Part shown: positions 49,855-50,911 of the stretch, one piece after another | Layout: every line of letters begins with the position of its first letter | Numbering within the stretch: the first letter of the stretch is position 1 | Source: Eledone cirrhosa | Taxonomy: Eukaryota | DNA length: 64,000 nucleotides | Direction of reading: 5' to 3' | NCBI GenBank assembly: GCA_964016885.1 | Contig: OZ024746.1 | Span: forward strand, 56,296,001-56,360,000 | Program-made: the position numbers and the translations under genes | Notes under the pieces: generated by a model | The model's input: only the letters and a program-made list of their open reading frames with translations | Told to the model about the DNA's origin: nothing | Databases searched by the model: none

Positions 49855-50911
49855 ACAATATGTGGAGAAACACACAGATACATGCGGACACATAGATACA
49901 CATGAATATATCCACATATATCCCTGAGTTAGTGGTACCAACCTCAGCCGATGTTGCTCTATGAATAACTGGGACAAACCAATCCGAATGGCTTAGACTG
50001 ATTCAGTATCAGAGCTATATAATACATTATGAAGAGAGAAGAAACATTAGATATAATTAGTAATAAGATATATCATACCTAAACTTCTTCTATTGTCCCC
50101 GACTACGTAGTTTCGTGGCATATTATGCAAAAACAGTACACCATAGAGATATAGAGTCTTCGTGAGGTTGTGCCAACTTATCAAGAGGATACCTCATTAA
50201 GGGTTTCAAAACACGACTGTGATGCGCGAGATAGAATCTCGAAAAGGCGGAGGGGGAGTCAATCACGTGTTACAGCGGTCAAGAAACAGAGCTAAGCCCC
50301 ATAATGTATTATATAGCTCTGATACTGAATCAATCTAATCCATTCGGATTGGTTTGTCCCAGTTATTCATAGAGCAACATCGGTTGAGGTTGGTACCACT
50401 AACTCAGGGATATATGTTGATATATTCATGTGTATGTATGTGTCCGCGTGTATCTGTGTGTTTCTCTATATATTGTTTATAACTCCCTTTGGTCGAGTAA
50501 CATTTGAAGTGTAGTGACTGCTGGATAGCTACCATGACTCATACTTCTCGCCTCCTCCAACTACCTCTTCTACGGCTTTGATTTAAATACCCCCTCCACC
50601 TCCGTGGTATTTATTTTCAGGGTTATAAGGGGCTTAGCTCTGTTTCTTGACTGCTGTATCACGTGATTGACTCCCCTCCGCCTTTTCGAGATTCTATCCC
50701 GCGCATCACAGACGTGTTTTGAAACCCTTAAAGAGGTATCCTCTTGATAAGTCGCCAGAACCTCACAAAGATTGTATATATCTATGATGTAGTGTTTTTG
50801 CATATTATGCCACGAAACTACAGAGTCGGGGACTATAGAAGGAGTTTAGGTATGATATATCTTATTACTAATTATATCTAATGTTTCTTCTCTCTTCATA
50901 ATGTATTATAT
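49855..50911. mobile_element. Head-to-head insert of an about 597-bp circularly permuted unit (family F) with U3-A8 hammerheads
   Basis: 50301-50911 begins and ends with ataatgtattatata (one unit plus overlap). 49855-50300 is an inverted partial copy spanning the unit junction. TA-flanked. Confidence 0.85.
50096..50189 (-). ncRNA. Hammerhead with U3-A8 core and long loop 2 (second copy 50739-50832 on plus)
   Basis: tcctc TTGATAA g-t-tggca...tgcca-c GAAA ctacgtag TC gggga; palindromic stem III, GUC cleavage triplet. Confidence 0.7.

Follow-up and report, generated by a model that had tools for sequence, protein, structure and literature searches.

The window, the whole 64-kb stretch of DNA analyzed here, belongs to a 3.0-Gb, microsatellite-rich genome. 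The locus is a single head-to-head insertion of a high-copy, non-coding repeat of 586-600 nt that carries a hammerhead motif with a U3-A8 core. Two arms meet head to head at ~50300, between (TA)n tracts at 49774-49855 and 50907-51071. In this family 3' ends lie at two fixed sites ~165 nt apart, termed A (unit position ~8-12) and B (~165-180), and the left arm (minus strand, 49856-50300) is the one bearing the ~165-nt tail. The single insertion event at 49856-50906 is read from the architecture only, since the two arms differ at 27 of 444 aligned bases (6%) and have no private variant in common. The features of the locus are as follows.

49774-49855, no strand: (TA)n target microsatellite, left flank; 275 of 283 family 3' ends enter (TA)4 within 40 nt
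49856-50300, minus strand: left arm, a 5'-truncated copy (unit ~330-597, then 1-176), running through the hammerhead and past end A to end B
49866-49930, minus strand: hairpin B of the left arm (predicted fold); its 3' arm ends TATCT-GTG-TGTTTCT, ~10 nt upstream of end B
50040-50091, minus strand: hairpin A of the left arm (predicted fold); its 3' arm ends TATCT-AA-TGTTTCT
50096-50189, minus strand: intact type I hammerhead motif with U3-A8 core, extended helix II and palindromic helix III; predicted cut after C 50101
Elements of the left hammerhead, minus strand: TCCTC 50189-50185; TTGATAA 50184-50178; helix II region 50177-50115 (63 nt); GAAA 50114-50111; palindrome ACTACGTAGT 50111-50102; C17 50101; GGGGA 50100-50096
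50300-50906, plus strand: right arm, a 597-nt unit extended by a few bases, with its 3' end at site A
50401-50465, plus strand: hairpin B of the right arm, read through (predicted fold)
50739-50832, plus strand: damaged hammerhead copy, with G>C at 50755, the palindrome broken at 50822-50823, and C17 at 50827
Elements of the right hammerhead, plus strand: TCCTC 50739-50743; TTGATAA 50744-50750; GAAA 50814-50817; C17 50827; GGGGA 50828-50832
50837-50888, plus strand: hairpin A of the right arm, ~15 nt upstream of end A (predicted fold)
50907-51071, no strand: (TA)n target microsatellite, right flank

The sequence-only reading had described the right block as one unit plus a 15-nt terminal redundancy and the left block as crossing the unit junction. 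The left arm does run across that point. A 16-nt repeat at 597-nt spacing also exists (50300-50315 and 50897-50912), approximately half of it continuous with the (TA)n target, but it is neither a family feature nor a defined end: only three of 229 arms start at unit positions 1-6, and the exact unit plus 16 nt is incidental. Directly to the left of the insertion, a fragmented non-LTR retrotransposon with zinc-knuckle, endonuclease and RT pieces occupies 44969-49310.

Both arms contain TCCTC-TTGATAA-(63 nt)-GAAA-(8 nt)-TC-GGGGA, with the elements at the places where they had initially been noticed. As RNA, UUGAUAA (U3-A8), GAAA and GUC form a type I hammerhead core with a Watson-Crick 3-8 pair. 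The strict version of a descriptor allowing U3-A8 matched once in the window and not at all in 100 shuffled windows. In the predicted fold, helix II consists of the closing pair G10.1-C11.1, a U-A pair, one bulged base and then GGCA/UGCC. The loop of ~55 nt that stem II was thought to close folds into a further 13-bp extension, for which 99% of cells in the alignment are paired. In the right copy, the G>C change at 50755 breaks a helix II pair, and AG in place of GT at 50822-50823 breaks the palindrome. Intact, the palindrome ACUACGUAGU pairs over 3 bp within a monomer and over 10 bp (-12.9 kcal/mol) when two motifs come together; the helix III self-duplex of the right copy reaches only -1.4 kcal/mol, compared to -12.9 kcal/mol for the intact one. 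When folding was constrained to the hammerhead, the left motif reached -19.0 kcal/mol (minimum free energy -20.6 kcal/mol) and the right motif -10.5 kcal/mol (minimum free energy -15.4 kcal/mol). The isolated hammerhead of 94-103 nt is not more stable than shuffled sequences (z -0.7 to -1.4). In vitro cleavage of the 94-nt RNA 50096-50189 (minus strand) had been suggested as a check; since this RNA has a 3-bp helix III as a monomer, failure to cleave would not refute activity. Rfam did not match the hammerhead in 49870-50900 at E values up to 10, nor was there a hammerhead among the matches listed for the whole window; these blanks are uninformative, since a canonical-core control motif in the window was likewise missed.

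Exact genome matches to a core 15-mer numbered 6,344, compared to three for the reversed control, and this count is a lower bound, as the 15-mer misses both window copies. A tail 19-mer gave 6,640 matches. The loci examined were picked by similarity or motif, mostly on the largest contigs, and are not a random sample. They contain arrays in tandem, partial-tandem and inverted order within (TA)n. At least two full units are present in 23 of 178 insertions, and up to six were found in one insertion, which bears out the tandem arrangement looked for among genomic copies. The 43 full units (586-600 nt) comprise a young subfamily (34 units, 97.5% mean identity), the subfamily of the window itself (seven units, 96% identity) and two singletons. 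Copies of an older subfamily are 85-92% identical to its query. The longest stop-free stretch in the unit, in six frames, is 91 codons. Comparison of the unit with the genome's Penelope-like element (PLE) protein gave no match, and there is no RT or GIY-YIG ORF, so the unit is not an autonomous PLE.

The U3-A8 pair is fixed in the family. A search for C3 variants returned ten matches, nine of them U3C single variants, and no family C3-G8 copy of a possible sister subfamily was among them. TTGATAA is kept in 46 of 50 copies of the older subfamily, which were collected without regard to the core. The family is separate from the canonical-core arrays of the window, as had been suggested when it was called a second retrozyme-like family. 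U3-A8 cores with a short helix II turned out to be seven internal-deletion copies.

The canonical-core, retrozyme-like arrays (CTGAYGA...GAAACTAGTA) lie at 18395-24488 and 13639-16662, and both adjoin (TA)n. One consists of 424-nt units in 10.6 and 3.8 copies, head to head at 22896, the other of 6.5 copies of 463-nt units, each at 100% identity; such long, perfectly homogeneous arrays would suit a rolling-circle test. Related copies were found at 28257, 28662, 56717, 58206 and 58362. Two canonical hammerhead motifs stand head to head between (TA)n tracts at 27230-28150 (27415, minus strand; 28054, plus strand), in arms of unequal 3' length, and a related canonical motif is located at 4960 on the minus strand.

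The hammerhead is more conserved than the rest of the unit. Between subfamily representatives, one, two and three of the 42 core and stem sites differ, compared to 89/540, 134/529 and 97/536 sites in the remainder (16-25%; p 0.013, 0.001 and 0.09). The stems are conserved across subfamilies 17-25% apart, and a family consensus lacking them, which would have spoken against the motif, was not found. One helix I pair varies between U-A, U-G and C-G. In the older subfamily, non-CpG variation affects 12 of 557 core positions (2.2%) compared to 890 of 19,338 elsewhere (4.6%, p 0.004), and helix I is more variable there (7.5%) than the rest. Whole units fold with z scores of -4.0 and -5.6 on the hammerhead strand and of -0.6 and -0.2 on the other strand (15 shuffles each). 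In an alignment of 16 units, both sides have changed in 11 of 122 pairs and pairing is kept in 97.7% of cells, with none of 500 shuffles reaching either value; the relatedness of the units inflates these covariation counts, as does the fact that most helices were taken from this very alignment. The three hammerhead helices are paired in 98.8, 95.8 and 93.8% of cells in the alignment, and helix I is open. The helices of hairpin B are paired in 98-99% of cells of the family alignment, with two pairs changed on both sides. These patterns, which we list in support of our preferred reading, suggest that selection acts on the unit at the RNA level.

What the sequence-only reading missed is the architecture of the insertions. 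A long predicted hairpin, with TATCT-N2-3-TGTTTCT at the end of its 3' arm, precedes each of the fixed 3' ends A and B by 10-15 nt. The 178 insertions counted consist of 114 head-to-head insertions and 64 single arms, with no tail-to-tail case; this count leaves out 11 duplicate loci, groups <150 nt and groups touching the locus end, and contains one locally duplicated insertion twice. One end of each kind was found in 107 of the 114 head-to-head insertions, and the remaining seven have one odd end, with neither A+A nor B+B ever present. Single arms end at B (35), at A (27) or elsewhere (2). Inversion junctions mostly show 0-5 nt of overlap, arms measure from <0.1 to ~5 units, and the 5' ends of 229 family arms are scattered along the whole unit, as in 5' truncation. 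The older subfamily behaves in the same way, with A+B in 17 of 19 inverted insertions and no same-same pair (two of its loci are already within the 178-insertion count). A coding PLE family of the window, taken as a control, has short and long ends in (TA)n, with one of each in all five inverted pairs in which both ends are visible. Head-to-head insertion at (TA)n, with two fixed 3' ends that differ from each other, marks Penelope-type mobilization. That the repeat is a non-autonomous element moved by PLE machinery can be stated with high confidence, and it is very probable that both arms are primed in one event from two distinct start sites.

A degenerate copy of a very abundant Neptune-like PLE lies at 60137-63670 of the window (34,004 candidates in the genome, with intact 1,217-aa ORFs elsewhere); it carries a canonical hammerhead motif at 63373 and has two 3'-end classes 55-70 nt apart. 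The 1,217-aa ORF contains the motifs DKSG, YVDD, CX4CX2C and YIGET. Pfam and PDB searches did not name this protein, and we take it to be of this PLE class from its motifs and from descriptions of the family. At 52059-52901 (minus strand) there is what we take, by its motif, to be a C-terminal GIY-YIG-like fragment of another PLE family; Pfam gave no match for it. The linker described in PMC8557442, together with the motifs, makes the 1,217-aa protein Neptune-like. Short sister-family elements ending in (TA)n, some of them tiny inverted pairs, were seen at three further loci (L216:100-290, L032:2000-2160 and L013:2250-2460), and these have the tail region of the coding PLE, ~76% at the amino-acid level. 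A narrow search for an autonomous partner sharing unit sequence, covering one coding PLE family and outlier loci, found none. The abundant coding PLE of the window has nothing in common with the unit beyond simple repeats, and 11 tail-motif loci with no listed core match (among 20 fetched) were all family copies with no adjacent ORF-bearing extension. Occurrences of the helix III palindrome in a non-family context were considered as a possible partner, and proved to be truncated copies or unrelated (30 of 37 examined).

The nature of the template was addressed through arm lengths and shared variants. Of the arms with an A or B end, 93 of 221 exceed 600 nt, the longest being ~2.9 kb, so that templates are circular or multimeric, as had been supposed from the left arm of the window. 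In favor of a circle, all eight units on both arms of one locus (L069) carry a 35-nt haplotype that is absent from the rest of the assembly, whereas 198 matches exist for its parent lineage. Both arms of L071 have internal deletions in common, as do both arms of L075 and the two tandem units of L073, though the deletion of L071 is also present at L077. A variant at L217 gave ten matches at seven loci in a genome-wide test and is not locus-private, so the rolling-circle argument rests on one of two genome-wide tests. Within the sample, a private shared variant occurs at only 21 of 102 multi-copy loci. The L069 haplotype could also be explained by a lost or unassembled source array or by gene conversion. 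For a circle as the main template we regard the case as evenly balanced.

Among variants common to at least three loci, A/G transitions outnumber C/T transitions 30 to 17 on the RNA strand, and within-locus differences show the reverse (15 and 34). The transitions are unpolarized, and the A/G excess could reflect structure selection, editing or enzyme error. An A-to-I editing footprint in inherited variants was considered and dropped: eight A>G and three T>C changes at first became six and five in a larger set (p 0.13-0.35).

Copies that begin at the predicted cut offer a view of cleavage in the genome. The pattern for such 5' ends gave 26 matches, all of them true ends at the last GUC base or the next base, and 21 of them (19 distinct) begin cleanly with the base that follows GUC. 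A control of the same design, placed 14 nt upstream, gave 37 matches; the 30 examined included four clean same-subfamily ends and ten with one matching base. There is no excess in total matches (26 compared to 37); it appears once clean ends are separated (Fisher p 0.002; binomial p 0.03 when every possible family end among the control matches is counted). In 165 loci not picked for truncation, six true ends lie at offsets 0-1 compared to six over offsets 2-14 (p 0.0025, with two false matches removed by eye). As these six stand among 307 sites, ~98% of passes read through the cut site. At L184 the cut is the exact start of both arms, with a single additional A separating them, and one arm ends at site A and the other at site B; this pattern would be expected from two enzymes running off the 5' end of the same cut RNA. 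The modest enrichment of 5' ends at the GUC cut is likely a footprint of in vivo cleavage, although it was noticed only afterwards and depends on a single control position and a small number of ends checked by hand; stalling of the RT at helix III could partly produce the same signal. From these genomic ends, cleavage by the hammerhead in vivo appears probable.

Taken together, we moderately favor, as a joint reading, a non-autonomous PLE of the non-LTR retrozyme type with a predicted self-cleaving RNA, primed on both (TA)n strands and probably copied from a ligated circle. Tandem and partial-tandem arrays are present, and a transcript can thus carry two or more hammerheads. Two hammerheads would pair through the palindromic helix III (10 bp), cut after GUC and release unit-length RNA. 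Most of this RNA would then be joined into a circle, or would stay uncut, given that ~98% of passes continue through the site. A borrowed Penelope-type RT-endonuclease, probably a dimer, would bind the similar hairpin modules A and B ~165 nt apart and nick both (TA)n strands, with one cDNA beginning at A and one at B. The observed outcome is two 5'-truncated arms, head to head with mostly 0-5 nt of overlap, with ends A and B. The most specific form of this scheme, in which one RT-endonuclease dimer sits on a single ligated circle with one protomer per hairpin module, cuts both (TA)n strands and rolls out two opposite cDNAs, is a tentative proposal that we place below an even chance.

The main rival keeps the non-autonomous PLE and the two-site priming but has an uncut linear multimeric transcript as template, with only occasional cutting and no circles; long arrays would then arise from long source arrays or from repeated template jumps. 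This agrees with the read-through of the cut site in ~98% of passes and with in vitro results in which the anole PLE mainly used uncut RNA (PMC11167929), and the L217 variant common to several loci and the many multi-copy loci lacking a private shared variant fit it as well. It has more difficulty with L069, where the haplotype fills eight of eight units on both arms and the assembly contains no source array. Aligned read-through copies have no indels at the cut site, although end-to-end jumping would tend to leave them, and the hammerhead is more conserved than its surroundings. We consider a linear template rather unlikely.

Two further explanations fare worse. The copies might be 5'-truncated pseudo-LTR remnants of an autonomous PLE that was not found, with the tandems made later by DNA slippage or unequal crossover; most PLE copies are indeed 5'-truncated, many Schistosoma U3-A8 motifs are solo PLE remnants (PMC4209133), and local DNA amplification of a PLE terminus has been proposed (bioRxiv 10.64898/2026.07.22.740005). 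Upstream of any arm longer than one unit, however, there is another unit and never an ORF, and the arrays always end at A or B with partial units at the inversion junctions, which shows that multimers were inserted as such. The matching tail (6,640) and core (6,344) counts leave no room for a large coding family sharing the tail, and this explanation is largely refuted and very improbable. That the hammerhead-like motif is a dead relic without self-cleavage, carried passively in a PLE-moved repeat, seems extremely improbable: the missing Rfam match would agree with it, though Rfam also misses the canonical-core motif in the window, and against it stand the core and stems conserved across subfamilies, the U-A/U-G/C-G variation in helix I, the lower non-CpG core variation in the unselected subfamily (12/557 compared to 890/19,338, p 0.004) and the excess of 5' ends at the cut.

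The U3-A8 core is not new, contrary to what the sequence-only reading implied. It has already been published for natural hammerheads, where the covariation was shown to be active in vitro (PMC3088659), and for PLE hammerheads: the Cercyon PLEs of Schistosoma mansoni have a U3-A8 descriptor of their own with ~1,300 matches (PMC4209133). Dimer pairing through a palindromic helix III has likewise been described (PMC4209133; PMC3088659). The family resembles the Cercyon and other natural U3-A8 motifs in the core swap, in a long helix II that has a bulged base close to where it begins, in the 5-bp helix I, in G10.1-C11.1 and in the palindromic helix III; opposite-strand pairs, with 100-700 bp between the motifs, have been described for those as well. 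Its helix II is long and extended, as in PLE-type motifs described as having no recognizable loop I-loop II contacts (PMC4209133). Cercyon motifs are mostly single, heterogeneous and tied to a coding PLE, whereas the family is homogeneous, young, tandem and non-coding, with a 10-nt palindrome (PMC4209133). Minimal PLE hammerheads cut poorly (PMC4209133), the anole PLE hammerhead needs protein to cut in vitro (PMC11167929), and cleavage was absent in eight of nine frog retrozyme dimers (bioRxiv 10.64898/2026.07.22.740005).

The name non-LTR retrozymes is used for repeats with type I hammerheads in tandem that are expressed as circles (Cervera and de la Pena, 2020, PMC7229834), and these elements have been argued to be non-autonomous PLEs (Li et al., 2026, bioRxiv 10.64898/2026.07.22.740005). 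With the metazoan non-LTR retrozymes the family shares non-coding tandem units that each carry a type I hammerhead, thousands of copies, low GC content and a structured RNA, and its unit of 590-597 nt lies inside the retrozyme range of 51-972 bp (bioRxiv 10.64898/2026.07.22.740005). It departs from them in the U3-A8 core, in the 63-nt helix II and in its mostly short, dispersed arrays in inverted pairs. Metazoan non-LTR retrozymes are expressed as circles, whereas for the present family circles and cleavage are predicted from genome sequence, and a homologous autonomous PLE was not found for it.

PLEs are characterized by inverted copies, a single-end tail and (TA)n as target (PMC8557442). For the Poseidon enzyme PAc, two internal RNA start sites define the tail, both strands are cut and extended, and a dimer is predicted (PMC11167929). 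The family resembles the EN+ PLEs Neptune and Naiad in its partial tandems, 5' truncation, adjacent inverted copy, one-end tail and (TA)n targets (PMC8557442). Unlike them it has no RT or GIY-YIG ORF, a tail of ~165 nt instead of 30-40 (PMC8557442; PMC11167929), a near-absolute rule of one of each end, and a hairpin module with TATCT-N2-3-TGTTTCT at each end. MRC1 and other non-autonomous Chlamys elements are also non-coding, pLTR-forming, multicopy in head-to-tail order and PLE-moved (PMC8557442). As described there, however, these Chlamys elements have no canonical hammerhead, and their 3' ends are in general similar to those of their autonomous partners, whereas for the family no partner was found. 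In the literature searched, which leaves supplements and repeat databases aside, nothing was found on this family or on a strict one-of-each-end rule.

The U3-A8 swap is known chemistry, and the value of the family lies in a countable insertion rule and a cleavage footprint. A large retrozyme family can escape CUGANGA descriptors and Rfam, and canonical and minimal descriptors would probably miss this one. Tandem and inverted insertion of PLEs and the role of their hammerheads have been named as open questions (PMC8557442; PMC11167929), and the family presents thousands of short, young, non-coding insertions with a countable outcome, as well as a small template on which two-strand priming and circle use could be studied in vitro. 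If the tentative reading of one dimer on one circle were true, it would account at once for the PLE tail, the inverted repeats and the tandem arrays of retrozymes, and with the 5' ends at GUC the in vivo activity of a U3-A8 hammerhead would for the first time be recorded in a genome. The one-of-each-end rule would show how a Penelope-type enzyme starts copying on both DNA strands.
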